A stretch of 63,455 nucleotides of DNA, the filler included, from Sphacelaria rigidula (Eukaryota), in assembly GCA_964200075.2 (NCBI GenBank). It is 7 parts of 7 records of this genome, joined end to end, with 100 filler letters (N's around TTAATTAATTAA, not from the genome) between each part and the next. Parts side by side here need not be neighbours in the genome. Positions count along the whole stretch, not along the records: positions 9,081 to 18,060 come from CAXNAA020009595.1; 6 more parts are not named here. One strand, written 5' to 3'. Under the pieces are notes generated by a model. It saw nothing but the letters and a program-made list of their open reading frames with translations, made no database searches and had not been told where the DNA came from. The position numbers and the translations under genes are program-made. Position 1 is the first letter of the stretch. Each line of letters opens with the position of its first letter. Positions 880-56,552 of the stretch are shown here, piece by piece.

Positions 880-1205
880 TTCCTTGGAGGCTAGTTTACC
901 GGCGTTGGGCTAGAAATGTCCATTCTTGACACAGTTTTACAAGTATCGCCACCGCTATGAACCCTAAACCCAACTAAACGCATACCGAGAACCCTCGGGT
1001 AAGGGCGGCAGAAACATTCCGTAGGCAAAGTGCGGCCTTCGTAGACCCGAAACCGGCGCCTATGGCGCCGAATTTAACGAAAACGCGTTCTGCACACGCG
1101 AGGAGCACACTAGGCTATTAGCCCTACTGAAATTCTGATGCTCGTTGTACACACTCAAATCAAGTAACGCGTCAACCACGGTAATTAGTAGCCCGACGAC
1201 GGTTC
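880..1205 (+). repeat. ~320-bp dispersed repeat with short terminal inverted repeats; diverged second copy at ~2595-2920
   Basis: The two copies align along their whole length. Ends gcgttgggcta(c/g)aaat ... att(a/t)gt(a/c)gccc(a/g)acg are inverted, and there is an internal aaccctaaac motif. Confidence 0.75.
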
Positions 1206-1759
1206 CGCTCTACTGGTCGCTTAGGGCACGCGATATCTGTTGCCCACACGTTGGGGCGGTCTGTGCCGTCCTTCCCTGTCAGGAGGTGGTGAGTTCAAAG
1301 GGTTTTTACTAGGAATTGCCGACAAGGAGGCGTGTTGGATCTCCGGTGTGATGAATGAATAAGTTGTTTCGGCTTGCGAGTTCTGTACTGCGGAGGTGCA
1401 CGTTGAATGGCATACTCCCTCGTTGGGCGACGGGGAGAGTCGCAATCGGGACGCTTGATCGTCGCTGTGATCGCCACTGCACTTGCCGCGAAAAAGCGTG
1501 CAGCGTTTCCTCCAACCGCTGTAGCATGAGAACTCTCTCCTCTCCCGTCGCAGACGAGGAGTAGGTCCAAGATGAGAGTGGCAAACACTCCCATCATCTG
1601 TGTAGGCGTTCACCGCGTAGCGTTGACTTGGTCCACTCCTCTTCCGTTTGTATTCGCCGTCTGCGAGTCTCCCATCGACCATGCCCCTGCCTTGCCCAGG
1701 GCGGGCGCCGCCCAAGGTGAACGCAAACCGTTCGTTTGTTTCACTACGGCCCTGTAGCC

Positions 1760-2400
1760 CCATCGCGCGGAGGTTCGTGACATACTGCTCGCTGCAATCG
1801 CAGGATGGTATCGTGTCCGTTACCGTCTCGCCTTGCCAGCCGAAAAGTCTCGGGAACATCCGACGCGGCGGCGGAACCCGGGCAGCCAGACGCGGCACCC
1901 CTGTTCAAGAAACTGAAGGCCATCGAGTGTGAAGGTCACGCTCAGCGGTGACACGATCGTCTCCGATGTGATGTTGTATTGGCTTTACTCTTTGCGTGGT
2001 GAATTTGCTTGAGGAGTGCTTGAATCATGCGTTCACGTGCTCTCCCAAGCAATCTTCCAGGCCGAGGATGAAGCGATACAAAGGCCACATCGAAGGCGAT
2101 CGTGTCACCGCTAAGTATGATCTTCATGCTCGAGGGCCTTCGGTTTCTTGACCCCAGGCGTACGGTGTCCGGGTGCCCGGTTCACCCCCCCCCCCCTTGC
2201 TCCGTCTCGAAAGGGATGCGTGGTCAATGGTCAAACGACTAAGGCAAGCAACAAATGGGACCGCCCCCCCCCCCCCCCTCCGACGGCCAGCGGGTGTTCA
2301 CGAGAGGTTTCGGCTGGCAAGGCGAGATAAGAGTGGACACATTGCTATCCCGACATTGCAGCGAGCAATATGTCACCGACCTTCTGGCGGTGGGGCTACA
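1760..2400. repeat. Inverted pair of diverged repeats (1760-1925 minus versus 2130-2400 plus); the second is interrupted by a LINE 3' tail
   Basis: Shared ttcggctggcaaggcgaga...ttgcagcgagca.tatgtcac block in opposite orientations. Confidence 0.7.
2185..2279 (+). mobile_element. Very short LINE family A 3' tail flanked by C-runs on both sides
   Basis: ctccgtctcgaaagggatgcgtggtcaatggtcaaacgactaaggcaagcaacaaatg matches the LINE 3' end; C-runs lie before and after it. Confidence 0.85.
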
Positions 2401-3124
2401 GTGCGTCGTGGTGCAACTGACAGTTCGCTGTTACCTTGGGTGGCTCCGAGTGCGAGCTCCGCCCGCGAAGCCCACGTACCTGCCCTGGGCAAGGCAGGAC
2501 CGTGGCGCACGAGGAATTCGTAGGCGGCGAATACAAAGAAGAATAAGTGGATGGATCCTGTCCGAGGTTCGCTCGTACGGCCGGCTTGTCCACTTCGTGG
2601 AGGCTAGTCAAGCGGCGTTGGGCTACAAATGTCCATCATGGTTGACACATCTTACAAGTATCACTACCCCTAGAACCTTAACCCTAAACTAACTCATACC
2701 GAGAACCCTCAGGCAAGGGCGGTAGATAGCATTCCCCAGACAAAGTACGGCCTTTGTAGACCCCAAATCGGCGCCTGTGGCGCCGATTTTAACGGAGGGG
2801 CGTTCTGCGCACGCGAGGAGCACACGGGGCTGTTAGCCCTGCTGAATATCCGATCCTCGTTGTAAACACTCAAATCAAGTAATGTGTTAACCATGGTAAT
2901 TTGTCGCCCAACGCTAGTCAACTCTGCGGAGTTCGTGTAAGGCTTACTCGTTTGTCTTCCCGGTGATTGTCGAAGAGGAAAGTCGCGTACTGGATAGAGA
3001 CGCCGCCTGCTTTTCCTCGGTGTTTTCTAGCAAGTACTGCAGTGGTCATCGTAGCAGTCAAGCGCGCTAATGGTGATTCTTCCGGTCCCCCAACTTATCG
3101 TTCTACTTATTTCGTGTTGATATA

Positions 3125-3290
3125 ACACCTCCACCAATGGGTTCTCGACACTAATGAAGCCTGTGCATGGCTGGCTTCATTTTGACTGTGCCAAGGTACC
3201 TCTTTGTGTATTGATCTTGCAACACCTCTACCGATGGGTTCTCGACACTGATGAAGCCTGCGCATGGCTGGCGTCAATTTGAGTGTGCCA
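3125..3290 (+). repeat. Tandem duplication, ~98-bp unit
   Basis: acacct..acc.atgggttctcgacact.atgaagcctg.gcatggctggc occurs twice; partial third copy near 3405. Confidence 0.8.
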
Positions 3291-3947
3291 ATTTATCACC
3301 TTAGTGCTTTGATTTTTGTTTGGCGTTGCCCCCCACGTCCTCTGTCATATTTTAAATTCATGAAACGCCTTCACCATGAAACGTCTCCACCATATCATGA
3401 GAGCCACATGGCTGGCGTCATGCACTGAACCCTTTGACCTCGAAGTAGTTGATTCGAGTATCTTTTTATGGCAACGTACCACGCTTTGTATTGGTCTTTG
3501 TATGCGGTTTCTCCGACAACCGAGATCTTGAACTATTCGCGAAGAAACGGTCAGGTAGCCAGCCCTCCAAGTGTCCTATGTTCAGCTCACTTCCTGTTGA
3601 TGTCATCATGCCAGTACTGACCCCTTGATACCTCCCTGAGAATCACGAGGTGCATGATATGTGGTCATAATCCACGGGTTCTGCTCGCAGAAAGAGAGGA
3701 AGTTGGTATGGTGTAGCGTCGGGTTAACCGCCGCCGAAGGCTCGCGGATACTAATTGTTCCGAAAATAGGTTTGGCACCCGAAACACGATGAAGTATCAT
3801 TTGACCTTTTTGCTGCCAACCATTGATGTCGGCATCATGTATCACACGATGATTAGCCCGCCAGTTGTCGACGTCATCATCAATTTGCCGGCGCCCGTAG
3901 GGTTTTCGCAGCTGAATCCACATCCAGCCGTGCGCGAGAACCCTTTG

Positions 3948-4185
3948 AATCGTGTCACCTATGTGGCACATGAGCGGAGCGGAACGGAATGGGAATGGGA
4001 TGAGATGGGATATGATTAAATCTCGGAAATGGTACCAGTCATTACTGGCAATCATCACCCTTCAAATCGTGTCACCTGTGTGGCACATGAGCGGAGCGGA
4101 ACGGAATGGGAATGGGACGTGATGGGATGGAATGGGATATGATTAGATCTCGGAAATGGTACCAGTTATAACTGGCGATCATCAT
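3948..4185 (+). repeat. Tandem duplication, ~120-bp unit with GGAAT/GGGAT subrepeats
   Basis: aatcgtgtcacct.tgtggcacatgagcggagcggaacggaatgggaatggga...tctcggaaatggtaccagt occurs twice. Confidence 0.85.
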
Positions 4186-5569
4186 TATAATGGTGATGGT
4201 GATCATGGTGACATGAAATTTTTGCACAGTGGTTTCAATTTTTTATTTGCCGTTACCGGCTTTTCCCTTGAAAATTGGCTCAAATCTCACGTATTTTTTT
4301 CGTGAAGCCCTCGTGAAGCCAAATCGCGTATAAACGGGCCTCCGGGGCCCTCCGGCAGGCCCCCCTCTGCCGGGGGAGGGGCTTGGCTCGCGGCTGCGCC
4401 GCTCGATGACCAAACCATTATGCACCATTTAACTGATTGATGGTTAGACAAAGCATTTCCGAGCTCTGGATGTGATGAAATGATATAGAATGGAAGAAAA
4501 TCGAGGAAGACGCTGGAAGGAGGAAGAAAGTAGGAGCATGTTTGTTCAGTAAAAATACACGATATAAGAAGCCACCATAGAATACCAAATTGCAAGTCGT
4601 GCACCGAGGGAAAGTTATATGGGCTGACCCCTTGAGACCACGCACTGAGCCATCTCCAGGAAGGAAACGGGTTGTAGGAGTGAGTCAGAAAAGAGAAGAA
4701 AACAAAAAAAGAACGCAGGCAGTTTCCAAGACATGTTGTTTTGGAACGTGACTGTAATTATCCATCCTAGTTGGATTTGTCCTGAAATGACGCAGCACCG
4801 CACCGTCGGTATATTGATCTACTCAGCCCTGTCCCGGCGGATTCCTGTTTCAGGTGTTCTTAAAATTGAAACCCCATGGCCGGTATATTCAAGTGTCATG
4901 TGTTGTCATGCGTGTTCATGGGACGCTTGCCTCCCGTCCCCCGTCCCCACACCCTCTTCCAATATCCGTCACCTTGCCTTACCTTGCTTACGCTATTTTC
5001 GTCAAGGCGGCGCCCTTCCCCCCCCCCTCCCCCCACCCACGCAAGTCGACCCACGTACATGCTTCCAGTATTATCACACCTCAGTCATGACCGCAGTGGA
5101 AAGTCTAATGTGATGGCAGACCGTATGCCCTAGGACATGGGTGTGCGTGCGTGCAGAGGGTGCCCTATCCAAGCAAAGTATACGTTGGCAGAGCTCAAAT
5201 CGGCGCCGATCTTAGCAACAGCACCTGCTGCTGCCGCTGCTGCGGACGCCGGCAAGCACCGGGGACTGTAAACCCCGATAATATTCGAGTGTCGAAAGTC
5301 ATGGTCTACATCGCCGAACCACATGTGTAGAAAACAGCAATTGTGGACGATGAGTGTGGTTTGTCTTAGATGTCAACGTCCAGGATGAATATGATCATAA
5401 CCCGGACTGAGGGTTGGAGAACGACAGTTTCGGGGTTGACGGTGCCGAGATGACGGGTTTCGGGTTGACGGGTGCCCGGGTAATTGGTAAGCGGGTCCGG
5501 TCAGCTAATATGTTGGTAACATTTTTTGTCTACTGTGGACTCGGGTGCACAAACGCGCGTGTATTATGT

Positions 5570-9080: not shown

Positions 9081-10129
9081 TGATCCAGTATTGATTCCCC
9101 ATCCTGGGCCGTAAGTATAATCGATTAAAATCCCCCCCCCCCCCACCCTCCGCTATCGTAGCATGACTCTGTGGTGGTGCGCAATGTGTTCGAGTGATTC
9201 GATGAAGGTCTTCGATGGTCTCGATCTGGTGGCCACTGTTTGCACTGCACGTTCCATAGTTTGGTCAAGGCCAAAGATATCGGACGAACGCCGAAGTCCG
9301 AACAGCTACGGATGACCATCGCAAAACATTCATGTTTTGTCTGGCGACCGGTTAGATCAACGCTTCACTAAAACAACCCAGCGCTCACACCACCACTTTC
9401 CGCTTCGCGGCAATGTTGACCAAGGGAGTCAGATATGTCAGGGGGCAGAATCCATCCCTCACATGGAACACCTACACGGGCTCGGCTAGATTCGCCACCA
9501 ATTCGTCGTGCATGCTCCTTTAAACCATGAATCTACTTCAAGCGATGTACACCTGCTCTCCGAAGCGAATCTTGGGCGAACGTATGGCTCCGCCCGCCGC
9601 CAGTAGGTCAGTATAGGCATCGTCGCACACCTAAGCGTCAAGCAGGGCGTGCCGATTGAAGTACAGAACCGGCCTCCACTAGAAAACAATAGGTTCCGTT
9701 TATTTCGAGGCTTGAATGGTCGATTTGAAGGACGTTGCTATAACTTGCCCCTGCTTACAATGTACAGGAACTTTTGTGAGGGGCACAATTGAACCCCTAT
9801 ATATATCGTGCTCCGAATCCTTTTGAAAACCCTCAGCTTGAACTTCTGCATGATGGCTCTACATCTCAACAGCGCTTAGGGTCTATAAGCCTTGTTGCTG
9901 ATGATTGTCGGGGTGATGGTGTCAGTATTGTCACAAACCTTGTACCAAAATGGGTGTCGAGGTTGGTGCTTGTGTCATTCTTGGCAACTGGTGTTGACAC
10001 AGCACGGGTGGCCACTGGGGTGCCTACAACCTCAAATTTGGACGTGACAGACCTTGCACAAGGTCTGCAACGTCCAAATTTGAGGTTGCAGGCACCCCAG
10101 TGGCCACCCGTGAGCCTTCAATCCGGCAT

Positions 10130-11376: not shown

Positions 11377-14300
11377 GGGGGGGGGCGTACTTCGTTGTTG
11401 CTTGCCTTAGCCGCTTGACCATTGACCACGCATCCTTTTCGAGACGGAGCACCGCTCCTACTCCTAATAGAGACACCTCCTACATTCTGGCGCTTATTAC
11501 GTTCCTTCCGTAGCTCATTACGTTTCTTCCATACATTACACAAAAACGTTTTACATATCTTATCCCTGTTCTGTTTTGCCATCTGTGGCCATCATCGACC
11601 TCCTAGTAGTATGGCCATCGTTTTCTCGCCACTGTCTAACGCGTCAAACCACGTCATGCCGTCTTCGTTCACGTCCCGCATTTCCCCCCCTAGCACGTTC
11701 CTCCTTGTATAGTTTATATTCTGCCACTATATGACTTCTGCCCTCTATGGCTTTGACACAGGGGCAATTCTGTGCAATCTGCTTCCTCCTCCTCTCGACT
11801 ACTGGTATATATCTTTCTTCTTTCTGGCAGGTCCAGGTCCCCCACCCGAAATCGCAGTTCCAATTTTCTCGCCGTGTCCAATTGGCCATGCAGATATGGT
11901 TTCATCCCGATCCCCTCTCTCAACCCCCCGTATATCTCCAGGTGTTCTTCCTCGTTTACTTTGCGTCTGAGTGCTTGCTTTCCCCTTGCTTCTATCATGT
12001 CTCCTACTCTTGTCTTGTACCCCGCGCCTTCACCTATGGACAGTATTTCATCGTATTTTCCTCCTATCTCCTTCCATACCTTCTCGACTTCTTTTTTTCA
12101 CCTTATTCCAGCCTCCTCTTTCGTAATTTTCTTCCATAGACTACAGCCCTATCAACTACGGCTGGCAATCTCTTTCTCTGCATGTTCTTCAAGCTATATT
12201 GCCATCTCAATTTCATCATGTTTCTGTTTGTTGTAAGTGGGTACATTCCCAACTCTGCTCTCAAAACTGCATTACTCGACGTTTTCGAGCACCCAAGTAT
12301 CTTTCTTCTCAGCTGCTCTAATCTGTACTGTTTCCAACCTCTGCACCAACTTCACGTTCCCCTCCAATACTTCTCCTGCATATTCCAGCTTTGGTACAAT
12401 CACATTCATCAGGATACATCTCTTAACCCTAGTGTCTATGTGCGAATCTCTGAGGATCACGTCCATCCCGTCCCTCTGTGCCCTACCCTTTTCTATTACT
12501 TTTATACATGTTTATTCCCTCGAACAGTTTATTGAGATCTCTACGTCAAGATATGCATATTGGTCTCTGATCAGTAGTTCCTCTTCTTCACACTTCCATT
12601 TGAATTTCACCGGATTTTTCTTATCCTCGTTACATGCGAGTACCGCGTATTTGTTAACGTTCGCTGCCACTTTCCATTTCCTGGTGTATTTTAGCGCCTT
12701 GTCTATATGTTTCTGCAATCCTTCTGCTGTTCCTGATGCCACAAAATCCCCACAAAATCATCTGCGAACATCAATCCTGATACCATATCTTCACCCACCT
12801 TGACTCCTTGCTTTGCTGCTTCTATTGCTATTATGAGGTCACTAATAATTATCTTGCTCAAAGTGGATGATAACGTACATCCTTGTGCAACTCCTTGTAA
12901 GATATCAAAATATTTAGATATTTCCCCGTCTAGTATCATAGCACTTTTGGCACATTCTGTCATCTTCTTCACTATTCTCCACATCTTTCCTCTGATCCCA
13001 GTTTCCCACAACTTTTTCGACAGCCCATTCCTCCATTCGAAGTCGAAAGCTTTTAGTGCGTCCAGAAAGAAACAGTACGTTGTCAGGCCGGCGTCTTTCC
13101 TACCTTAAATGATCTTCCTTGGGGTGTACTCATGGTCTACGCAAGTACAGTTTAGTATAAAACCTTCTTGCCCCTCGCTGATTTTCTGTCCCGTCTCTAG
13201 CATCGTTCCTACTCTATCGTTCAGAATCTTACAGAATGTTCTCCATACCGTGCTCAGTAGCGTTATCCCTCTGAAATTTCCTCGGTCAGCCTTGTCTAAA
13301 AAGTTGACAACTACTCCTTCTCACCACCACCTCTTGGGTGTGCACTCGTTTCCCAGACCCAGTTATACAGCATAATCATCATGGTAATCATTGCATTTTC
13401 CCCTTATTTTAGAAATTCGTTCACTATTTCGTCTGCCCGTAGTGTGACTATCCCCTTTTCTATATCTCCTACCTGGCTTTCGATGATCGATCCCATCTAT
13501 CCCTACCCACATTTGTTTTATCTCGTTATCGAAAAGTCTTCATTTGTTTTATTCACTACATCCTCCCATCCTCCCTTTTTTTCTTCTGTTCCATCTTCTT
13601 TACTTTCTTTCGAGCTATAGTATATTCCTCCCATTCCACCGTAGTTTTACTCGATATCCATCTCGCGTGGGCCTCTCTCCTCACCTTCATAGCCTCTTTT
13701 GCTTCCTCACTCCACCATTTTACTGCTCTATTGCATACGATGGCTTTCTTCCCGATGACTTTACTCGCTGTGTTCTTGACCAACTGCTCCCACCCTTCTG
13801 TCATCTCCGCTGCTACCCAATCCCTTTCCATTTCGGTATCAACTGTACCTACGTGTTCCAACGGCTCGGAAACATTCGCTGTATTTTTGTCAATCTCTTC
13901 TTGGAACTTTTGCTGTTTTTCTTGCATTTCTGGTGCATCGATTTTCCATCTGTACAATATTCTACCCCGCCTATTTCTTTTAGCTCTCGTCTGTTGACTA
14001 TCTGCCCACATTAGGCAATGATCTGTAGTTCCCACGTCCTCCGCGCATATATGTACTCCTATTTATTTACTATTTCCATGCTTCCACACTACGAGTATAT
14101 AGTCAAGAACAGAGCGTCTCTCTCGCCTTTGCATTTTCTAGTCCACCTCCACTGCGCCTCTGGATTGTGTGCTCTATCGTTCAGCGTCTTAAACTCGTTA
14201 TTCTCAAGGAACTTGAGCATTTCTCCCCCATTCGTGTTCTTCTTATCTTCCTCGTATCGCCCAATGATACCATCCGGTTGACCTGCTCTTCCCACCTTTG

Positions 14301-15320
14301 CATTAAAATCTCCAACTAGCATTACTTCTCCTTACCTTTTCCACTTATGTACGTCTGCTGTTATCTCTCCAAACCTCCTTTGTATACCGTCCACCCTACT
14401 CTTCGATTCTAGGGCATATAGATGTTCCCTGCGGAAAAGTCCTTCTTCCCCCGCTCTCCTGCTACCCTTATCCATATGCTCTCGGCGAATTTCGTGTCTT
14501 CTATCACTTCTATACTGTCGCCAAGATATTCCTTGACTAAGAATCCTACTCCCCCCGCTCCCCTGCTCTTGGGGTTCTGTCCCTTCCGTCTTTCCCTTAT
14601 CCATGCGTACTCGTCAATTTTCATCCTATTTCCGTCCCCTCTTGCTCCCATGACTCCTGGATTCCCACTATGTCTAGGTCGCGTTTACATACTTGTTGGG
14701 CTATCTCTTTTCTTGTGCGCTTGTCTGTGGCAAATCCACACACGTTCCACAGTGCTATTCTCAACTTTCTTTCCTGATCATTATTCACTTCCCCTTTGTC
14801 TACTGCCGTCTCTCCGTCGTTTTAATTCCTATCTTCCCTTGCTTGCTTTTTCTTCCCGTTTCCGGTTCGGTCTTTGCCTATTTGCTTCTTGCCGCTATTT
14901 CTCCTCCCCTTCCCTTTCCCGGCACGTGCTTGTTCCTGCCTCTCTTTCCCTCCCTTCACCCGTGGACTATGCCCTAGGTTTGTTGTTCCATTAGCTATGC
15001 ATACTCTCCATCCTACCCTTCGAACCCATGCCGACGCCCTACCTGTTTTTTTCCTTTCGCACTCCTTGCTCACGCTCTATTTTAGCGTGACTCGGGAGTG
15101 TTCTCCTTCCCTTTCTGTTGTTTATATTGCCGAACAGGATAGTCCAACTTGATTGCACTTCCTTTTCAACTCTGTTCTTGTCATATCTATCCGGACTCCC
15201 AATACCAGCAATACTAATACTTTTCTCGTGCACTCTTTACTTCTCCATCCGAGCTTCCTTACCGTCTCTCTCACTTTCTTTTGAGAGTATCTCCAGCTTA
15301 TTCGTTTTCAGTACTGTGGT
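11377..15320 (-). mobile_element. Near full-length degenerate non-LTR retrotransposon (LINE family A): purine-rich ORF1-like region, APE endonuclease, RT, C-terminal Cys/His motif, poly(C) 3' end
   Basis: Minus-strand fragments LVGDFNAKVG and TDHCLMWAD (APE), QGVAQGCTLSSTL and GLMFADDFVG (RT), CPCVKAIEGRSHIVAE (C-terminal). Many frameshifts; 5' boundary approximate. Confidence 0.92.
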
Positions 15321-15329
15321 GGGATGTAG

Positions 15330-16140
15330 TTCAGTTACTTGAACATCCCAATCGTAGTACTCGTTGGAGGTCTGGTACCTTTCAGCCCTTTTGCTAGCTC
15401 ACCGGCACTGAATAATGCTTCTCCAACATGGGCTCGTAGCCCGAAGCCAAGTTCAACATATTTAACACAAATACCCCACGTTTGTGCCAGGCGATCTTCA
15501 TGGTCAACCATCCAGGCGTCCCACGATCGTATCTTCTATTTTTTTGCCTCGCTGCTGTACTGGTCATTCTAGGGAGGTCATTTTCACCGTGTAAGGCTCA
15601 AGGACGGCTTGCATGACACAAAATCTTACTCATATCGGGACGTCCCGTACATCGCTTCTTCTCACTCCATGTACGATTCACCATGGATCGCTGCGCCACT
15701 GATGCCTCCGAGTAGACCTTTGCTGCCGAAAGCTTGGCCAAAGATTCCCCCACACTTGGTACCAGCTTCTATCCTTCAAAATCTCAAGAAGTCTACGAAA
15801 CGCTTGGTGCTCCTTCTCGTAGGTCATGTGGTCGCTCATTGGTAAGGTGTTTGTTTGATGAGTGCAGTATGTCTTGACGTTCATGTCATGCACTATCCAC
15901 CCTTTTCCTTCATGAGACGCATTTTGCACCCTATGCCACTTAGGGGGTGGGGGAGGTGGGGGGGTGGCTACCGTAGAATGTCTCGCAATACCTTCAAGAC
16001 TTCCGCGGACGCACAAGCCTTCTTTCAAAGTCTTGCCGAAGAAGCCAGTTCGGGAATGTTTTCCGCTGGATGCAGAGTGTGGTGGGCACTTGATGTGCGT
16101 TGCGCGCGTGCGGAACAAAAAGGCCAGGCACACGAGAAAG
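15330..16140 (-). pseudogene. Possible upstream part of the same degenerate transposase, separated by the LINE insertion
   Basis: Fragments HIKCPP, GWIVHDMNV and DHEDRLAQTWGICVKY lie on the same strand immediately upstream of the LINE. Weak similarity. Confidence 0.25.
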
Positions 16141-21300: not shown

Positions 21301-21930
21301 GGGGGGGGGCGTATTCAGTTGTTGCTGGCCTTAGTCGTTTGACCATCGACCACGTATCTCTTTCGAGTCGGAGGGGTCGAGGGGGGGGGGGGGGGGGGGG
21401 GCGTGTACTCGTGATCTTGCATGCCTTNNNNNNNNNNTGTTTGGTTTGAATTTCTTGTGGCGCGGCTTGTGCGGTGGTGGCGTTGGGGCCCGGTGGGTGA
21501 GGGGGGGGTGGGGGGGGGGCGTGTACTCGTGATCTTGCATGCCTTAGTCATATGACCATTGAACTCGCATTCCTACAACGCCGGGACGGAGCACGCCGGG
21601 TTTTCGCCGGACCAGACTCGCAATAAATCACGAAGCGCGAAGCGCCGAGATGCGTTTGGCGAGTCGCATGAAGGGTGAGCTGCATCCTGCTAAGATTGTT
21701 CGGCCCGAAGCGTACTGGTTGTATTCCGCGCATATGAATGGCAGCCTCGAATGAGTTGCTTCATTTTCTGATAGCGCTACTTTCAGAGACAGCCACGGGT
21801 TCCACACTTCCTCATGGGCGTCTTACAATTTGAACACAATGCATTAATAGCATGATCATCTCCTTTGCGCGGAATCGAGGTTCTCCCACGCCGCACGATA
21901 TAATCTAGCTCGACCACCATCACGGTGACC
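21301..21930 (-). mobile_element. Cluster of LINE tails: family A tail (21301-21380) stacked on family B tails (21381-21426, 21500-21930), each ending in poly(C)
   Basis: G-runs on the plus strand are followed by cgtattca / cgtgtactcgtga. The family B body matches 43770-44140 and 54478-54690. Confidence 0.8.
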
Positions 21931-22963
21931 GCAAAAAACCGCAAACGACCAACACAACGGTATCCTGGTTGACTAGCTTGCGCAGTGAGTGACGGGTTTC
22001 ATAGCGTCATTGCCAACCGACGCCAACCCCGGCGTGCTCCATCCCTACAAAGCCGGGACGGAGCACTTCGGGTTTTCGCCGGAACAAGCTGAGGGGGGAG
22101 GGGGGGGGAATGAAATATCAAACCATAAGATTTCGAACATATTTGAAGTATAGGCACAAAATCAGTAGTTATATGTGCTCCGAAATGAGTGGGATTTAGG
22201 TATCTACGTGTGACAAAATCTACCTTGAGATGGAGGCGGTAAGTACTCAGACGGGCTCGTGATCTTCAACACGTAGAGTATCTCCACCTATCCTTTCGGC
22301 CAGCTGCTTAATCTATAGAAGGTCGAGTACATAGTACCGAAGCAGAAGCGCGTACAACGGGGGTTCCACCGCAGCGTGGTCTTCACACGTGCGGGTTCTC
22401 GCACAGTACGGTCAAATGCACTCGTCACATGTCTGACCCGCAATACTAGTACCAAGTAATTGCGAAACACCAGTGTAGTGGGGGGTCCCAGCGTAGTGCA
22501 GTCGTCCCGCGCTGGCGACACACCGCGCCATGTTCGGACTCCCGCTGTAGCCCACGAAAGTTTATGAAATTATGCACACAGGGTTCTCGAGTCAAACTCT
22601 CGGTACTATGTATGCCCGGAGACCAGATCTGACCCCCTGGATGATGACTTAATGCAAATAACAGCGTACTCGACGCAAGTCGGTCGGCCCGGTGGCTCAG
22701 TTGGCAACCTCGTACCCTTCGGACGGTTGGTTCGTGGGTTAGAATCTCGGTGAAGTCGCACGATCTGGGACTTTTGCTCACACCACGCCCAACGGCGGAG
22801 AATGACCATGTCGTATGTCGTGGGTACACAAAATCCGACTTCATCGTCGACGAGGGAAGAACACCACTGGATCCCTCTCGCGATGAAAATCAAGGCTAGC
22901 ACAGAGGAACATGGAGTGCTAAAACAAAAGAAAGAACAAAAAAACTCATGCTAAATTGGCGAC

Positions 22964-23642
22964 GGGGGGGGTGGGGGAAAGTACTCATTCGTTGCTTGCC
23001 TTGGTCGTTCGACCATTGACCACGCATCTCTTTCGAGACGGAGCACCGTTCCTACTCCTAATAGAGACACCTCCAACATTCCGGCGCTCATTACGTATCT
23101 TTCATACGTTACACAAAACCCTTTTACATATCTTATCCCCGTCCTGTTACGCCGTCTCTGGCTACCATCTATCTCCTAATGTAACCATCATTTTCTCCCT
23201 GCTGTCTAATGCATCAAACGATTTCATGCCACCTTCGTCCGCGTCCCGCATTTTCCCCTCTAGCACGTCCCGTTCCTCCTTGTAAAGTCCACATTCTGCC
23301 ACTATATGACTTCTTCTCGCTATTGCTTTACCACAGGGGCAATTATGTGCATCTACTTCCTCCTCCTCACGACGACTGGCGTATCTCTTTCTTCTTTCTG
23401 GCAGATCCAGGTCCCCCACCCGAAATTGCAATTTCATATTTTTCGCAGCGTCCATTGGGCCATGCAAATATGCTTTCATCTCTATCCCCTCTCTCAACTC
23501 CCCGTATATCTCCAAGTGTTCTTCCTCGTCTACTTTGCGTCTGGGCGCTCCTTTCCCCCTCATTTCTACATATATATTACTTTTGTCTTGTACCCCGCGC
23601 CTTCGCCTACGGACCGTATTTCGTCTTGGTTTCCTCCTATCT
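22964..23642 (-). mobile_element. 5'-truncated LINE family A copy
   Basis: Colinear with 11377-12070; encodes HNCPCGKAIARRSHIVAEC; ends TGAGTACTTTCCCCCACCCCCCC. Confidence 0.9.
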
Positions 23643-26066
23643 AAAGGCTGAATTACGTGCTCGGCGCAATGGTCTATGTTTGAAAGGGGTTATGGGACCT
23701 CCGTTGATGTATTAATAACCCAGTAGAAAAGTGTATACTATACTCTCCATGTAAAATGTAAAATCCCCATGTGTGCACTAACACACACCGCAAAACACAC
23801 TCTGCTCGCACACTGCACACTGAACACACACTTAATGAAGTGGGGTAGTCATTTCTGGGGAAAACACTCATACAAACATGACATGTCATAATCCCATCTC
23901 TTCGCCACGCAAGAATGCATGTCCCCGTCAGATACCTACTGCAACCGCTACATCGGGTATACCTAAAATAACAGAACTGTATATCTTATCCGTATTTCCT
24001 CTGTACGTCATGATCCAATCTCAATATCAATATCCCTTGCATCCAGGCAGGTGAACTGTTATAATCCTTGAGCGTCAGTATACTCGATAAGCCTCCCTGC
24101 TTTCGGCTCTAGGACTGATGGTTTATCCTGAATTCATGGTGTCTCATTCTGAAAACGGCAAAATATTTCATGTTCTTTCGAACATGAATCCAACACTATA
24201 TTGCCAAAAACTGAAAAAGAAAACCCGATCCCGTCAGGTTAAAACCTTTTCAGCCACGCACAGACGTCGCAAACTCGTCTACTTTAGCAATCGAAAGCTC
24301 CAATCCTGAATATTATCAGTTCTTCGTAACCTATCCATGCTCCATTTCAACAATTATTGGCGTCAGTCAGCACAAAACAAAAAAGATATGTGTATATCGA
24401 TCTCAATCACTACCGGTTCCCAAATCTTCGAACAACCAAAAATCACAGAAGATTGTACAGTGGACACCGTTTTCATACCCCCAGTTACCATGATGACATT
24501 CGAGAGACTCACTCGATCTTCCAATACTCGAATATGTCAAAGACGCACTATTCTCAGAGTAACAAGATGCTGTTGTCTACGTGAAATTCGATTCAACATA
24601 CCTTCTACAACACGGTCTACATCAGACAAGTGTCTACAGTCAACATGTTCAGTGGCCGAGATATTATTCCACTGAACAATAACATGACTTCTCGAAATAG
24701 TATGCAAAATAGACACTGCAGAATGAAAACTTGCAGTAGTGGTGTGTGTACCACTTCCCCTCGACTTCGAGAACAAAGTTCAAATTCAAATCGAATCAAT
24801 TCAAGTTCAAATCGCTAAAACTAGAGGTATGCTCAAATACAAAAATGTATAGATTTTCCATCTGTTCCAACATAAGAACACAACACCTGCTTCTGTTTGT
24901 ACCACTCCGTATCCTAGAAAAACAAGACAGAGTCACTTTCAAAACATCATTAGCCTCCCTGATGATGTCGACCATCTATCAACTGCCTAGAATAGTTGAT
25001 ATAACCCATATCAGTGAACACCTGCAAGCTTGGACCCCTTCATATCAGAACACGAAAAACATCTCTTTCGAACCTCGTTCACTTCATAGACCCCAGAGAA
25101 AAATTATGTACCAGTACACTCGTTCATTTCACAACGACTTGTACTGCGTATATTCCATCAGGGAGAAACTCGGAACATAAAACCGAACTCTGTAGGCACT
25201 AAACATAATGTAGCCAAAATTGGCGGTTGATCAGTCCACTTCATTTCGAATTACTGATCTTTGATGCAAATTTTGCTCGCCATCCGGCCCGATAAATTCC
25301 CAAAATCGTCAAACTCATCGTCCCACTCTTGGAATATTTTCCCTTCCACAAAACAATCAATCCCTGTACACCAAAGTCCAAGTGCATGCAAATAAGTCAA
25401 ATTAGGAGTTACTCTGCATAAGCAGGACTATCACCCCAAATATATCAGGACGGATACTACTCCTTGAATAAGCGCCACACCCTGGGGAGAGCATGACATA
25501 AATTGCTCCGTATAAAAACGCCCCCCCCCCCGATTCAATATTACACATTGATTTGCAGGGAGTATTGCTTCCAGGTATTACATGAAAACATAACATCGGT
25601 AGCCCCAGAGTCAATCCTCGTGAGTATCCTGGTGCAAAGTCAGTCCCGCATGTTGAACGGCGGGTGGATAGTCAATTGTTTAGTGATACCCAAGACTAAA
25701 CAACGTTCTCGTCTCGGGAGTATACACAAGTTGAATCCACGTCATGTTCTTTCCGCAATTGAAAATGCCCAACGCAAAATCCAGAGCCGACGAATCATTT
25801 TGTCGAAAATATTCTAGCGCGGATCGCAAAATATCAAACTCCCTCTCGAAATCCATAACCGACGAATCAAATTGTCCAAAATAATCCGCCGTGGATCACC
25901 CCATCACAACATGATTTCCCCTTCTTTTTATATTACCCGAAAAGAGAATTATGGTATCGGATAGTCAAATCCCCCCCCATTAGTTTCTTTCTCGACTATC
26001 TCCTTCCATAATTTCTCCCCTTCTTTATCCCACCTTACTCCAGCCCGCTCTTTCGTACGTTTCTTC

Positions 26067-27140
26067 CACAGGCACCGTAGGTAAGGTAGGTACCCGGTAC
26101 CGGTATTTGGGACATCTCATACCCTACCGATACCGGTCCAATCCGGTATTTTCAAATGCCATACCTACGATACCTGCGATACCACGATATTTCGAGATTT
26201 CAAGACCTACCGTACCCGCCCAATCCAGTATTTTCAAATGTCATACTTACGATACCTACGATACCACGGTATGGGATACGCCGGTAAGTACCGGGGGTAT
26301 ACCCGGTATTTACCGAACGCGATACACTACCCACGATGCAGCAGCCGGTGCCAACTCACGCTGAGGGCAGAAGCTGTCGGAGCACGCACGTCTTGTTTTC
26401 ACAAGTAATACCCAGTTCCCCCCTAAGTTGCGTGTTTGGATCAATTCGAATGAATCATTCCCATGTCCTCTGATGGTTTTGGTGTGTGGGTGTAAATAGT
26501 AGATCACCACTCGAAAGCATACATCGTTCCATGTCGAAGACGAGCATTATACGCAATAAGATCCCACGTGTAAACAAGTAGAAAAATAACGAAAATGAGG
26601 AAACACGAAAAAACGAGGGGTCTCAGAGGGCATACAATATACACAACAGTGTGCCAAAATATCAATGAAATAACCTTCTATATTTATTTATATACTACCG
26701 TAAATACTGCGCAATTGTCGGGTGCTCTGTACGAAAAAATACAACAACTACACATAGAGGGGCAAACGCTACTCTTGTGTACTACTGCACTGAAACGCTT
26801 CGCGCTGCCGTATGACAGTTTTGAATTTGGTATACAGGGTGAGGCAGGTACCTGGCACCGGTATTTGGTACATCTCATACCCTACCGATACCGGTTCAAT
26901 CCGGTGTTTTCAACTGTCATACCTACGATACCACGGTATTTCGAGATTTCAAGACCTACCGTACCCGCCCAATCCGGTATTTTCAAATGTCATACCTACG
27001 ATACCTACGATACCAGGGTATTTCAAGATTTCAAGACTTGCCGTACCCGCCAAATCCGGTATTTTCAAATGTCATACCTACGATACCTACGCATACCACG
27101 GTATGGGATACCCCGGTAAGTACCGGGGGTACGCTTGGTA
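26067..27140. mobile_element. CACAGG-terminated non-autonomous DNA element with minisatellite subterminal arrays (cut by contig end)
   Basis: Starts CACAGGCACCGTAGGTAAGGTA like 41451. Contains ~75-bp units built from atacctacg 9-mers. The internal segment 26790-26850 matches 41993-42055. Confidence 0.8.
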
Positions 27141-36140: not shown

Positions 36141-36479
36141 TGGGGGGGGGGGTGTACTCATGATCATGCTTGCCATAGTCATCAGACCAGTGACCTCGCA
36201 TCCCTAAAAAGCCGGGACGGNNNNNNNNNNNNNNNNNNNNNNNNNNNNNNNNNNNNNNNNNNNNTTAATTAATTAANNNNNNNNNNNNNNNNNNNNNNNN
36301 NNNNNNNNNNNNNNNNNNNNTAGGTCAGGGAAAGCACGGCTTTTGAGTTGAACCTCAACTTTTTTTTCAACCCCATTTTCGAAAATCGGCTGTTAAACGT
36401 GGGCCGCGAAGTGGCCTGCAAAGTACTGTTCCGAATGTCTACCGACCCCGTCACCAAACGGCCCAGTAGCCGGCCAATA

Positions 36480-43752: not shown

Positions 43753-44715
43753 GGGGGATAGAGGGGGGGGCGTACTCATGATATTGCATGCTGTAGTCCT
43801 GACCGCTGACCTCGCATCATTGCAACGCCGGGACGGAGCACGCTGGGCTTTCGCCGGACCGGGCTCGCAATCAATCACCAAGCGCGAAGCACCGTGGTGT
43901 GTTCGGCGAATCGTATGCGGGGTGACCTCCATCCTGCTGAGATTGCTCGGTCCGAAGCGTACTGATTATCTTGCATACGTATGACAGCCTCGGATGAGTT
44001 GCTTCATTTTCTGGTATCGCCACTTCCAGAGACAGCCACGGGTTGCACTGCCTCAATGATGTCTCGCCATCTGAACACTGCGTGGTACGACCATTCCCAT
44101 TGTGCCGAGTTGAGGTTCTCCCACGCCGCACAACATGATCTACAGTAGTGGGCGGTCCAACTCTTTAGGGGTGTTTGGAGGTTTTCCTCGCGTACTACTT
44201 TTCGATAGAACTCGAAATTACCAGCGTCGGTAGATTTTGGTACAACAAAAATCATCCTCAAGACACAGTGCCCAAGTCAGTCTCAGTTGGTGTTTTAGGG
44301 CGAAACGAGTAAATACCCCGTTCATCAGGAGGGTGTTATTGACCGTGAAGCACAGTTTTTCGACCCTGGTGCACTGAGTAGGCAAAGTTTCAAAAAAAAT
44401 AAACTGTACATATCTCCACAAATATTATCGGGACGGGCTGGATCGACCGAAAATACAGAAGAGTGAGAATCTGGGCTGAATCGTGGCAGGATCCCCAATG
44501 ACCGGTCAGCCCGTAAGTCACTCGATATTGAGTACAGATGATTTTTTCTTCTTTTCATGTGGAGCGGATACAAATATCTTGAGATCCCCGATGTGATAAG
44601 GGGTGGTAAGTGAAGAGAGCCCAAGAAAACCGCCAGTTACGAAAAAATCACAAAATGCCACAAAATAAATAATTCAGACCGCCCACTACTGTAGCTCGAC
44701 TACCATCATGGTTAC
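43753..44715 (-). mobile_element. 5'-truncated LINE family B copy interrupted by a Tc1/mariner MITE; further B copies at 36142-36220 and 54478-54712
   Basis: Aligns to 21520-21930 on both sides of the MITE; ends CATGAGTACGCCCCCCCC. Confidence 0.8.
44143..44691. mobile_element. Tc1/mariner-type MITE
   Basis: TIR CAGTAGTGGGCGGTC...GACCGCCCACTACTG flanked by TA. The empty site atcTAgctcgac is visible in the paralogous LINE copy at ~21905. Confidence 0.9.
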
Positions 44716-47700
44716 CGCTAAGAAATAATGCGAACAAGGAGGACAAGGAATAATAACTGCTCAGAATAACCGAATCCACGGTGTTTTAGGCCTGGTCTTT
44801 TGACCGCGGGTCTGAAAATATCTCTACGCAAATTTTCAAGGGTAGGTCGAGTAGAGTATACTCACTACTCAGTATTTTTGAAAAAGTCATACTTTTAGTG
44901 CTCAAAGTCTGAGTAAATTATTTGAGGTCGTACTCAATCTACTCAATTCTTTTGACCGCGGGTCAAAAAACATATCTACGCAAATTTTGCGCCGTTCCAC
45001 GGTGACAGAGGTGCGCGTAACTTGGATGCAATGCTGAAAGCAAGGCCAGCAGCATGATTTATTTGATTCGTACCGTACGAATCAATTGCACTAAAAGCAG
45101 ATCATTCTCAGATAATCATGATTCGTCTGGTCCTATGATGGTCCCCGTCTCACGCGTTGAGTTCGAGTTTTCTACGGCGAACGTTTCCGTGTTGTTGCCC
45201 TGGATACGCGTGTGGAGTATCTAATGACCATGACTGGGTTCGTGAGGGGGGGGGGACAGTTGGTGTGAGACGACGGTGATGATTTTGGTTGGTTTGGCAN
45301 NNNNNNNNNNNNNNNNNNNNNNNNNNNNNNNNNNNNNNNNNNNTTAATTAATTAANNNNNNNNNNNNNNNNNNNNNNNNNNNNNNNNNNNNNNNNNNNNG
45401 TTTTCTAGTGGCGGTCCCCGCTATATGTACAGTGGCAGTCTGTACATTTGTCCAGGTTTTGGTGGCTTGTTTTACAGCGCCATTGCCACTCAACGCCATC
45501 TCAAGAGTCTAGATGTGAGGGGAAACTATCGTATGGTTCGATCGATTTCTTTTTTTTGTAGCGCCTACTGAATATTTTTTTCGGAAGCTTGATACGAATA
45601 ATCAGGGTTAGAAGGAATAACTATAATCATTGTCCCACTAGACCAATGACTGTCTGTCTTTGCGAGTTTTCGTTACTTTTACGGGGGATTCAGTCACTGG
45701 TTCCCAATAGAATATGTGTCTATGTGCGACACCTCACTACTCCATGCGCGTGCGTGCGCGAGAAGTAACAACTCCGACATGAAGAGGAGACTTGGGTTTG
45801 CTCTGTATCGCAGTTGCAAATCAGTTGATCTGTGACGACGGCCGTCACGAGCAAAGGTCGCACTTCACAGTTGATTGAGTTATTCTTGGAGTGTATTGAA
45901 TGACGCAAAGAGTCACCTTCGCGAAGGGACAGTACGTACGACGTATTGAGGAGGGGATCCAGCCTCTAAATATTCGATTGCTAGGTAGGTGAATTTGCGG
46001 CGTCTGCGCGCCACTAAAATGGGTTTCATCCCGGCAGGTCCGGGTGTTCTCAGTCGATGCTTGGTGCTGCAGTGTTGTGGACGATTTGCCAGTTGGTTGA
46101 TGCTGAGCTGGACCAAGGGAGGGTGCTTGATAGAACAAGTTATTCCCACTTACATCTATGGGTATGGAACGAAGATATCGGGCTATGTGGCGGGGGATTA
46201 TTTTCCGGGGGGGGGGGATTTCAAGTGTACGGATGTGAGTATCTGCTTTCAGTTTAGTGGTTAGATTTTCGTATACCAGCGCGAGGAATTTACGCATGCC
46301 CACGACCTCACTCAGCTATCCTGTTCGACTTGCCTTTTTCTCTTACATGATGCGACGGCTCACACGAGTCGCGGGTGCGTTCAGTATTATATCCTATGTG
46401 GCGGAACGCTTGGTCTTGTATGTACTACGCTGCCCCGCAGCTGTACGTGATACTCTGCAGAGCCAATTGAACATGTCTGCTCTCGAAGTTCTGGAAACTC
46501 TTTTTTTGCTCACTACGAGCTCATCACTGAGATACTGGGCAATCCCGTCTGAGTCCAGATAATATCAACACGCTAGCGTGATTGTCGATAGCCTGGTATG
46601 GATCAGTTTCTCTCATGACTGATGAAAGAAGGACGAAGTAAAATTGTAGACCACGAAGTTTCTCGGGGCAACAACGTCGTTCATGTTCTTCAATGGCCGT
46701 ACAGGTGGTGATTCAGGAGAGTCACGAATAAATCGGCGGGGAAAGATTGCAGATAAAACCGTTGCTAGGGTACAACCATCGGTGGATAAAAGGCACTGCA
46801 ACACTGCTCAGGATGTAGTGGGAGACGAAGGACCGACAAATCGAAGGGCTGTACGGGTGGTACAGGATATTCTGCGTCTGACCTTGGGTTAGGCCACATT
46901 CCCACCTCACACATGGACTATGGTGCAAGTAAACCACGCTCGGGTTGGAATATCTAGAATGTGAGCAACCAGGGGAAGGAGCGCAAGCTACGATCGAGAC
47001 CGTTTCTACGCTCGAGACCGTTTCAGACATGTACGTCTCAAGTGCGTTATGTGGTGCTGTAGGAGGTGTAAGGTACCACTCGGCAGTTGATGTGTGATAT
47101 ACTCGCATGTTGTCCGAGCCTGCTAGCGGCGGTCCGTTAGATATGGTGCAACAGCATGACAGCAGAGTACTTGAGAACAAACATATGGGTTTAACTGAAA
47201 TAATATATTTATGATCCTAATATTATTTTAAGAGAGAAAATTTAGCGCATGCTGGTATGTATGATTCAGTCAAGCTTTTTCGAGGCATCTCCCTCCTCAA
47301 GTGCACCCTCACGGTGAGGGTGCCTTGTGTGCTTCGAGAGTAAGCCGGCAACTGTGCATGCACGCAAAGGCTGAGTAACGGGTTTCGCCGAATTTTACAT
47401 CGGATAAGACGACTAGGGACCTGATCCAGCGATCCCAATCTCCGTCTGTCGCCTAGGATACGTTGATCAATAATAATTACACGAACATTACGGGTGCCAT
47501 TTTCGATGTTGCGGAGAATTTTCACCGCCCAACGTATGATCCAGGATCTCATCCTGACGAGTTCCATGTAATGTTTGAAAGGTCAAGCAGTTTGCTCGGA
47601 GCCAGAACCAAAGGTGGCGATCTGCTTCACAAGCTTTTGCCCTGCCTCCTTCTCCTACCACTGATGTGCGAGGTACACTTCACGTGGAGCAATACTTCAC

Positions 47701-54226: not shown

Positions 54227-56552
54227 CTGTGCAAGCGATGGGTTCGAAAATGAAGGTGAGGGTATGAGTGAGCGACACGAATCGATCGATCTGCACGTCT
54301 TTTTTTTTCCCGCACACTTTGAACTCCTCCCCTTCCTCGGGATGAGCCCGTGGTCTCAAGGGATCAACCCATCTCTCNNNNNNNNNNNNNNNNNNNNNNN
54401 NNNNNNNNNNNNNNNNNNNNNTTAATTAATTAANNNNNNNNNNNNNNNNNNNNNNNNNNNNNNNNNNNNNNNNNNNNCAGGTTCGCACTCAATCACCAAG
54501 CGCAAAGCGCCGTGGTGTGTTCGGCGAGTCGCATGAAGGGTGAGCTGCATCCTGATCGTACGATCGTTCGGCCCAAACCGTCTCGATCATCTTGCAATTG
54601 GATGACAGCCTACGATTAGTTGCTTCATTCCCTGGTATCGCCACTTCTAGAAACAGCCACGGCTAATCCACTGCCTCATGGGTGTCTCCGGAGGGAGGGG
54701 GGTGGGGGGGGGCTTCGTGTCCAAAAATCTTCTCCCCGCAGCCCCCTGGGTCTATGTGATGATCGAACGATGAAATAGCTTACTCGTGCTTAGTAGCCGT
54801 CCGCGTCACCACAGGCAGAAACATGACGGTCGCGGTTCACGCTTTGCCAGAAGACATAGCGTACACCCGTCTGGCCAGTCTGTCGGATACGCTATGCAAG
54901 ACAGCCAGATCCAATCGCCGCAATGTCTGGGGAGTTGGTTGTCGGGAAAAAACAATGATGATCTCTCGTATGTATGATATGGCCTACTTGCCCAGGATAT
55001 TTTTGTTGAAGTAGGATGGACTGATGCGGCAAAACATATGCCGTGATGTCTGTACTCGAATACGCACGACATTGCGGTGACTCTTGTAGCATTTCATTTC
55101 TTGGACATTATGGTACAAAGATGATCACACTTTTACTACTGTTGTACGGTAACTTTCACTCGCTGTTATTTTTTCGAAACATGTTGTAAACTTCACATTT
55201 ACAAGGTCTTTGAACGAGAACGGTTGGTGACTGTGAGACATCATCCGTCATTTCCGGCATCCCCAAATTCTTGAGGCAAAGTTGAATAACGTGCGTACAG
55301 CACGAACCGGGCTGCAAAACAGACGCCACAGGATATAATAGCCTGGTCTACCATGGTCACACAACGTCAAATCAGGATTACAACGCGTGTGTTCGAAACT
55401 CGATTAATGCCGTGCGCATTTTGTACCACTCGCCTTCAACGTGAAGTTGGGACATATGCATGAACGCGTAAAACACCTCAACACAGTGATCGCGAAAAAC
55501 CCCGAATATCCATGTCATAGTCAAAAGGTTTTTTTCGCGAGACAGTGCCGGAGAAACGTCTCAGCCCACGGAAAAGGAACGCGCGTTTGCCATGCCAGGT
55601 GCGGTGCATAATCGAGAGGAAGCGCAGAGACGAAGTAAGTGGAAGCAGCCACAAAAACAGGCACGAGAAAGTTCACTCACGTCAGGTCACTCGGAGAAAC
55701 ACTTTTGGCTGTTGGGTGAGTTAACAACAGCGACGGTGCAGTTGGTTTGAAGTTACCAAAACAGATCGGTGTGGAAACCCAAGACACATCCGAGGGAAGG
55801 GTGTATCAAAATAAACCGTCGGGAGTTCCTGATGATTCGCTGAAATACATAAATATATCCTGACTCCGAATATCAGTTGGTCATAGCCATCTATGTAGGT
55901 CACGAAGGCGGACACAGCAGCCCTAAGACATTTGCTTTCTAAGTGAGTGATCCTGAAGTATTATAGTATGTTATGTTATCTGGCCTCGCAGAAAGTTGCA
56001 CCGACATTCTTCGTGACCGCCTCAATCGATGCAAGAACCCTAAGCAAGATCACAGAACACAACAGACAGTGCAATAGAATCCCCGCCCTCCAAAGTATCA
56101 CGGTCAACAATCACCACTCAATTATACCGCGCCGGTGGAACCTCCGACCGCAGCAGTGACGAATGCAATGAGGAAATCAGACGGGGGAAAGAAGGTGATG
56201 GTGCGTGAGCTACGATATGATGTCAGGAAAGCGAATATACGCCGTGTGCTTCTTCCGTGTGCCTATTATACATCGCGAAAAAAAGGGGCAGTGTGCGACA
56301 AGTACTTATTTTTTATACTTATTTTTTAGACCCATTTTTACGGCAACGAATCTCGATTTGTACAAATATGAGAATTTCAGTGAAAAAATCGGGGGAGATG
56401 CGGGAGTGTCCCAATTTCAGCAGAAAGGTGGTGGAGCAAAAGTCCACGTCCAGAGAATCGGAGAATTGATCTGGTTTGCTCAGAGCTAATTTAGGCGAAA
56501 AGCATTGCCCAAAATGGGTCTTATTCTCAATTTCATTTCTTGATTGACTCAA

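Follow-up and report, generated by a model that had tools for sequence, protein, structure and literature searches.

A poly(C)-tailed, probably RTE-X-type LINE and its likely non-autonomous partner in DNA of Sphacelaria rigidula

What is already known of LINEs (long interspersed nuclear elements) that end in a run of C instead of A? The closest described systems are entries in the transposable element catalogue of Ectocarpus (Genome Biol 2025;26:320, PMC12477816, Supplementary Material 3): RTEX-1_Ec32 (5867 / 5511 bp; 'single EN-RT ORF; (C)n 3'', that is, one open reading frame, ORF, for an endonuclease and reverse transcriptase), RTEX-2_Ec32 (5582 bp; '(C)n termini/TSD'), the non-autonomous RTEX-N1_Ec32 (607 / 604 bp; '60 bp 3' end 83% RTEX-1_Ec32/RTEX-2_Ec32', 'can be present in tandem') and RTEX-N2_Ec32 (188 bp, with a similar 3' tail), each with its target site duplication (TSD) given as 'C-rich'. 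Repbase recognises RTEX as a clade within the RTE group, and the main-text passages of that paper drawn on here give LINE/RTE-X 7 families and 16,418 copies and contain no discussion of tails or C-rich targets. The subject of this work is a pair of repeat families, A and B, whose copies end in C-runs, in a window of 63,455 nt from Sphacelaria rigidula (assembly GCA_964200075.2) that consists of seven ~9-kb pieces joined by N-runs, with the family-A copy A1 on the second piece. Family A is probably an autonomous brown-algal RTE-X-type retrotransposon without long terminal repeats (non-LTR) and with a (C)n tail, and family B its non-autonomous partner. Since (C)n 3' ends and C-rich TSDs are published for Ectocarpus RTE-X, the finding is already known in kind; a first-pass annotation of the window had left room for novelty, which this existing description of the same tail removes. 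The features of families A and B agree with the catalogue entries as they are worded, the C-rich TSDs less clearly than the rest, and the window adds confirmation in further data, not discovery. What we did not find described is the priming mechanism proposed below and a sharp-ended, massively stacked 66-nt module.

Other systems offer partial parallels. In the stringent pairs of LINEs and SINEs (short interspersed nuclear elements), such as eel UnaL2 with TGTAA and the I element with TAA, the partner likewise shares the 3' end of the LINE, and the tail is a repeat of variable number for which template slippage is the suggested cause (PMC3747384). Here, in contrast, a single C makes up the repeat unit, the shared module overlaps the coding end and not a 3' untranslated region (UTR), and a conserved stem-loop is not demonstrated, the candidate hairpins being devoid of compensatory changes. 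L1, judged by its nick-site consensus, has the mirrored geometry, with a homopolymer tail next to a duplication whose first base is that of the tail, and with a further run of this base ahead of the 5' junction. Unlike in L1, the tail here is C and not A, is without a polyadenylation signal and belongs to an element probably of the RTE group, and 3'-end recognition appears stringent where that of L1 is relaxed. Animal RTE LINEs have very short 3' UTRs. The RTE clade as catalogued in Ectocarpus (RTE-1/2_Ec32, with (CAA)n) resembles family A in its single EN-RT ORF, very short 3' UTR and simple-repeat tail, but the tail here is (C)n and not AT-rich or (CAA)n, and a CCHC-bearing region of ~370 aa follows the reverse transcriptase (RT). 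A keyword search of the literature on LINE poly-C tails, in which the spelling 'poly(C)' could not be matched, gave nothing pertinent; L1 3' UTRs with internal poly-C tracts, as described in PMC5381506, still end in poly-A. With its poly(C) tail such a LINE stands as a natural counter-example to L1 and its poly(A)/T-rich priming, and could show how pairing between tail and target sets insertion sites.

Family A and its 3' terminus

The C-run is the true 3' terminus of these elements and is of variable length. We compared 13 independent 3' ends, eight of them in the window, one from an intact family-A copy on the contig L001 and four from metagenome contigs. L001, a contig of 5259 nt that came up when prokaryote genome contigs were scanned, is evidently DNA of an alga that was placed in a bacterial bin, and the genome behind it yielded no family-A copy besides L001. 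In all 13 ends a (T/C)GAGTAC-like motif leads into a C-run of 8-21 (tail lengths are given on the sense strand), after which the DNA differs in every case, and the window tails lie on five pieces, much as the first-pass annotation had it. The eight window tails are C15, C9, C9, C21, C10-A-C8, C5-A-C8, C11 and C8, and the five outside are C13 (L001), C8, C11, C10 and C2-T-C7. Before the run, seven window ends carry GAAGTACG, TGAATACG, TGAGTAC(TTT), CGAGTACACG (twice), TGAGTACA or TGAGTACG, and the eighth, that of copy A2 (2198-2263), carries the decayed motif TGGGACCG; L001 ends in TGA-GTACG-C13 and continues into unrelated sequence. (C)n stands at the terminus of all nine family-A ends, in seven of which a TGA lies 5 nt before the run, with CGA in its place in the copy at 11377 and TGG in that at 2198. 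The spacing of ~5 nt first proposed for an 'ORF2' stop thus stands, but there is one long ORF and no ORF1.

The same holds beyond the window. Contigs of four sequencing runs (X1, X2, X3 and X6, from three studies) were aligned to L001 at a likeness of at least 85%, and, judged by their ends, the termini are C-tailed genome-wide. The loose contig ends past L001 5164/5165 (286+668 in X1, 1478 in X2, 392+1396 in X3 and 115 in X6) run into further C's and then into no consensus (agreement 0.35-0.41), and with these contigs included tail length ranges from 8 to over 30. We looked for poly(A) or a conserved sequence beyond the run and for a fixed run length: there is no A-run after the element end in any of the 13 ends or in the loose-end consensus, nothing conserved follows, and the length is not fixed. 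No polyadenylation-like signal was found, and the 3' UTR is 5 nt long. From base composition we estimate that well under one C/G run of at least 9 is expected in 63 kb; the window has fifteen, and nine of them belong to families A and B.

Family A encodes one ORF of ~1,330-1,360 aa with an N-terminal region, an apurinic/apyrimidinic-type (APE) endonuclease, an RT and a C-terminal CCHC knuckle. In L001 it is the single sense ORF, at 1146-5147, with no ORF1 and no other sense ORF of at least 60 aa. An open frame of 426 aa also runs antisense to it (L001 3530-4810, minus strand), probably a by-product of codon bias. The + strand of 11377-15320 in the window is strongly C- and T-rich and the coding sense is the minus strand, on which the stop-to-stop frames of A1 are broken pieces of the large protein; Pfam RVT_1 matches the piece at 12703-13104 (E 8e-08), and the other ten pieces match nothing at E 0.01. 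Pfam Exo_endo_phos and RVT_1 are both found in the relatives P0003, P0005, P0011 and P0012. In P0003 and P0005, full-length relatives of 1360 and 1328 aa, a CCHC motif lies close to the C-terminus, which reads ...VVNGQMTKASNK, and the final residues ...KASNK are common to P0003, P0005 and P0001. By tblastn, A1 follows P0003 aa 1-1360 along 15262 -> 11397, frameshifted and with aa 605-690 missing. The designation as an APE-type LINE was sound. The copy extends further than the 11377..15320 at first assigned to it: L001 aligns to 15922 -> 11377 with 75-76% identity, the homology beginning at ATGCG near 15922, ~600 nt further on. Positions 1-352 of L001 are also highly repeated in the sequencing runs, so the element may be longer still and A1 is not called full-length. 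The features of family A in the window are as follows.

11386..15922, minus strand: copy A1, degenerate, with the whole ORF region (P0003 aa 1-1360, gap at aa 605-690) and ~660 nt upstream, 75-76% identical to L001
14086..14755, minus strand: APE endonuclease remnant of A1, frameshifted (tblastn to P0003 aa ~170-392; Pfam Exo_endo_phos on P0003)
12535..13350, minus strand: reverse transcriptase remnant of A1 (Pfam RVT_1, tblastn)
11386..11451, minus strand: ~66-nt 3' module of A1 (GTGCTCCGTC...GTACG), common to family B and overlapping the ORF end
11377..11385, minus strand: C9 tail of A1 (G9 on the + strand)
2198..2263, plus strand: A2, 3' module alone, stop decayed to TGG, 95% identical to L001 5087-5165
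2264..2278, plus strand: C15 tail of A2
21310..21380, minus strand: A3, 3' module alone, directly behind the B1 tail (stacked)
21301..21309, minus strand: C9 tail of A3
22978..23642, minus strand: A4, 5'-truncated copy (P0003 aa 1158-1360, matched by tblastn at 22988-23596), TGA stop kept
22964..22977, minus strand: tail of A4, C5-A-C8
25996..26071, minus strand: small internal family-A fragment (L001 4425-4497)

How close is family A to the catalogued elements? A protein search with the RT piece of A1 gave 19 relatives, among which the only informative source names are Ectocarpus sp.; P0004, which bears that name, agrees with P0005 in 353/391 aligned columns, 26 columns being gaps, and P0005 shares its C-terminus, and 71% identity over 1,333 aa, with the L001 ORF. 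Clades cannot be told apart by the PDB search (L1 ORF2p, E 6.6e-21; R2, 8.8e-20), and no clade names occur among the best 120 of 440 relatives, the Atlas names being generic only. At ~71% protein identity the window family may be a sister of the Ectocarpus-type family represented by P0005, or may come from another brown alga. By the wording of the entries it resembles RTEX-1/2_Ec32 in its single EN-RT ORF, 3' (C)n, thousands of copies and brown-algal host, with C-rich TSDs as a possible further likeness, and differs in that the published consensus is 5.5-5.9 kb long and only ~4.5-4.8 kb can be traced here, a comparison by description only.

Family B and the module it shares with family A

Family B looks like a non-coding element of ~570-600 nt, and not the second of 'two related LINE families' that it was first taken for. 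Its copies align to each other over ~400 nt, but an alignment of 14 ends of both families has homology only from GTGCTCCGTC to the tail, and by BLAST A and B are 78-85% identical over 60-75 nt, the shared part being the last ~66-75 nt. Neither APE nor RT was found in family B, in that tblastn with LINE proteins matches no B region; B2, B4 and the copy at 54478 have stops in all three sense frames, some common to several copies. The peptide homology once quoted between the families is a likeness at the nucleotide level only, and all three B copies that cover the quoted frame carry an in-frame stop shortly before it. As a candidate coding region, a 70-aa stop-free stretch was used as a query and rejected: it found only P0135, a 171-aa ORF that reads through the element (a weak search, with 3 candidates). 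The family-B features are these.

21520..22092, minus strand: B2, ~570 nt, non-coding
21501..21519, minus strand: tail of B2, C10-A-C8
22093..22108, minus strand: 5'-junction C-run of B2, C9-T-C6; C6-8+TCA is repeated after the tail
21402..21427, minus strand: B1, last 26 nt, ended by a 10-N assembly gap
21381..21401, minus strand: C21 tail of B1, which is also the C-run at the 5' junction of A3
36153..36220, minus strand: 3' end of B3, cut by the piece end
36142..36152, minus strand: C11 tail of B3
43771..44142, minus strand: B4, 5'-truncated or diverged upstream
43763..43770, minus strand: C8 tail of B4
54478..54688, minus strand: family-B copy, 3' part lost at the piece edge
54697..54712, minus strand: upstream C9-A-C6 run, 8 nt off the 5' end of the 54478-54688 copy

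B2 is probably a complete non-autonomous element, and on its shared 3' end family B is presumably moved in trans by the enzyme of family A. The likeness to the entries for RTEX-N1_Ec32 and RTEX-N2_Ec32 is considerable: ~600 bp (~570 nt in B2), no ORF, a C-rich duplication, a tandem or stacked arrangement, and a shared 3' end given for RTEX-N1_Ec32 as ~60 bp at ~83% against 78-85% over 60-75 nt here. The comparison is again by description only, with one probably complete copy in the window. Immediately after the 5' C-run, 47 nt in the 5' head of B2 (22040-22086) recur in its 3' region (21568-21614) at 89% identity, which may relate to the 'weak homology to 5' of RTEX-2' published in the RTEX-N1 entry.

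The shared module also occurs by itself. A solo unit of ~66 nt with its C tail (L001 5085-5165) is present in very many contigs, mostly after a long C-run and often head to tail: 315 contigs of X1 have a long C-run directly before L001 5087, and many contigs in X1-X3 join the tail (5159-5165) straight to 5085-5089. The 5' end of this mini-unit is sharp, at L001 5085-5089, and falls just where the A/B module begins; its examples in the window are A2 (2198-2278) and A3 (21301-21380). Summed contig depth, which is not copy number, is several times higher in the last two L001 bins than in most others. Among metagenome stretches 111 match a 17-mer of the module, with the element end present in 4 and absent from 107, and viral contigs have 2 matches to the 17-mer and 0 to a 23-mer of the element end. 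From 5 nt downstream of the module 5' end a hairpin of 6 bp with a GNRA-type loop, GAAA, may form. Possible causes of so uniform a truncation are an RNA 5' end, a strong stop and protection by protein. A tentative and rather doubtful suggestion is that the last ~66 nt with the C tail are a self-sufficient minimal substrate for retrotransposition, whose RNA would have its 5' end at L001 5087 through processing or an internal start and would be copied repeatedly onto G-run-primed targets to give stacked mini-units. Were that so, the brown-algal RTE-X enzyme would be a compact, homopolymer-C-directed system of target-primed reverse transcription (TPRT), with a cis element that overlaps its own stop codon.

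The ORF end has distant parallels as well. On L003, an archaeon-binned contig, a relative only 36% identical in protein (3085-3300) ends in ...RCVVNGRDAMAAHS-stop and is alike in 16/16 nt to the brown-algal element at the ORF end (GATGCGTGGTCAATGG); behind the stop stand about five units of a ~31-nt tandem repeat in place of the C's. P0011 and P0012 also retain the C-terminal C(V/E)V(N/Y)G motif, and the ORF end may double as an old cis element. Rfam, searched at E up to 10 with L001 4800-5259 for a ribozyme or another known RNA in the 3' module, gave three matches at chance level, all with E > 6, and these were set aside.

Insertion sites, priming and competing explanations

C-runs are found not only at the 3' ends. 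A C-run lies at most 20 nt upstream in five of the seven readable 5' junctions, where it adjoins A2 and B2, is the B1 tail at A3, and stands 8 nt off the 54478 copy and 20 nt off A1. The 5' runs reported in the first pass, at 2185-2196, 21381-21401, 22093-22108 and 54697-54712, are all confirmed, the one not yet listed being:

2185..2196, plus strand: C12 run at the 5' junction of A2

B2 is flanked by a C-rich duplication in which C6-8+TCA recurs past the tail. Copies also stack, as had been noticed: from 21519 to 21301 there follow on one another the B2 tail, a gap, B1 and A3, with A3 directly behind the B1 tail, and the contig joints from 5159-5165 to 5085-5089 repeat the arrangement. A 10-N assembly gap at 21428-21437 lies inside these stacked tails, the assembler having evidently broken at the homopolymer-flanked repeats of the stack.

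How might such elements insert? Taken as a whole, the following mechanism, which takes up the priming on G-rich target DNA put forward in the first pass, is in our view marginally probable. The enzyme would recognise the conserved 3' RNA module of ~66-95 nt and nick the DNA at a C-run/G-run; the freed 3' end of the G-run would pair with the terminal C-run of the RNA and prime cDNA synthesis, a variable priming position within the run and slippage of the enzyme together giving tails of variable length; and each new tail would be a good target in its turn, so that copies would stack. We infer both the priming step and the origin of the C's at the RNA end. The placing of the 5' C-runs is as expected under TPRT when the nicked strand has G's at its end for the C-run of the RNA to pair with.

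Several observations weigh against these interpretations. The assignment of family A to the RTE-X type rests on its features and on its nearest named proteins being those of Ectocarpus. The 5' junctions of A4 and B4, two of the seven, have no C-run nearby. At A1 the flanking AAGTGGC(A)TAG recurs, but weakly, since 48/2,000 shuffles score equally, and no convincing TSD was found at L001, A4 or B4, the flanks of L001 coming from a short-read contig that is possibly chimeric. X1-X3 are DNA-type runs, the RNA status of X6-X9 is only guessed, and no run is recorded as RNA. It speaks for the shared module that the last ~95 nt are conserved better than the rest of the 3' kilobase (mean pairwise identity 0.95 vs 0.73-0.89 upstream), but the profile is partly inflated, since an exact 17-mer from within the module served to choose four of its seven sequences. 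In two hairpins proposed there, 95% of cells are paired, vs 22-49% when slid; no pair is changed on both sides, 169/500 shuffles score equally, and the folding energy of seven 3' ends is no better than that of shuffles (z -1.22 to +1.37).

The alternatives to C-tail priming differ in how much of the evidence they accommodate. The element could have no tail of its own and be strictly specific for (C)n microsatellites, the flanking C-runs being the split and duplicated target. Non-LTR elements of this habit are known, the (TG)n-specific Togen families described in PMC4640811 among them; RTEX-2_Ec32 is entered as '(C)n termini/TSD', and A2, A3 and B2 have C-runs on both sides. The two ends are not alike, however: the run comes directly after GTAC(N) in 13/13 3' ends and near only 5/7 5' junctions, its offsets of 20 nt at A1 and 8 nt at the 54478 copy fit a duplication that starts with C's and not an embedding within a run, and A4 and B4 have no upstream run at all, which makes this account unlikely. 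For the mini-units in particular, one could regard the stacked ~66 nt + Cn as a satellite that multiplied through replication slippage or unequal crossing-over, as the many contigs in which the tail passes directly into 5085-5089 of the next unit would allow, and the published partner element 'can be present in tandem'. Yet junction positions and C-run lengths differ widely among the joints, A2 is a solitary unit in unrelated DNA (2185-2278), and the family-A unit behind a family-B tail (21301-21401) cannot come from duplicating one unit; satellite spread is distinctly improbable.

A third account leaves the RNA without a C-run and has the RT or another activity add untemplated G's to the nicked DNA before copying starts from ...GUACG. 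Tail lengths of 8 to over 30, the 5-nt 3' UTR and the want of a polyadenylation-like signal agree with it, but the C-runs at 5' junctions and the stacking on earlier tails are left unexplained, and we hold it to be very improbable. Finally, homopolymer G runs are a known read artefact, the poly-G of two-colour chemistry, but an origin of the runs in sequencing or assembly is refuted by their position inside the pieces, with unique flanks on both sides and at one fixed place in the element, and by their recurrence in the window, L001, four metagenome contigs and the contigs of four runs from three studies.

Minor observations

Families A and B are among the most abundant brown-algal repeats, and as such shape introns and seed C/G homopolymers. 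In the window, nine of the 20 C/G runs of at least 8 have no link to these elements (no matches, self or local matches, or an unrelated nearby inverted repeat), and the DNA upstream of these nine has no repeat within the window. Six further C/G runs of 10-13, with no window repeat attached, lie at 5018-5027, 9132-9144, 25521-25531, 45246-45255, 46207-46217 and 52333-52345; they may be orphan tails, insertion targets or the ends of other families.

Eukaryotic LINE-bearing contigs (L001, L003, L004 and the source of protein P0007) sit in bacterial or archaeal bins, one of them on a 162-kb contig; they are host or algal DNA contaminating public metagenome-assembled genomes. ARAGORN reports one tRNA-Cys(GCA) in the window, at 26822-26914, whose 93 nt are long for a tRNA, so that an intron or a false call is possible.

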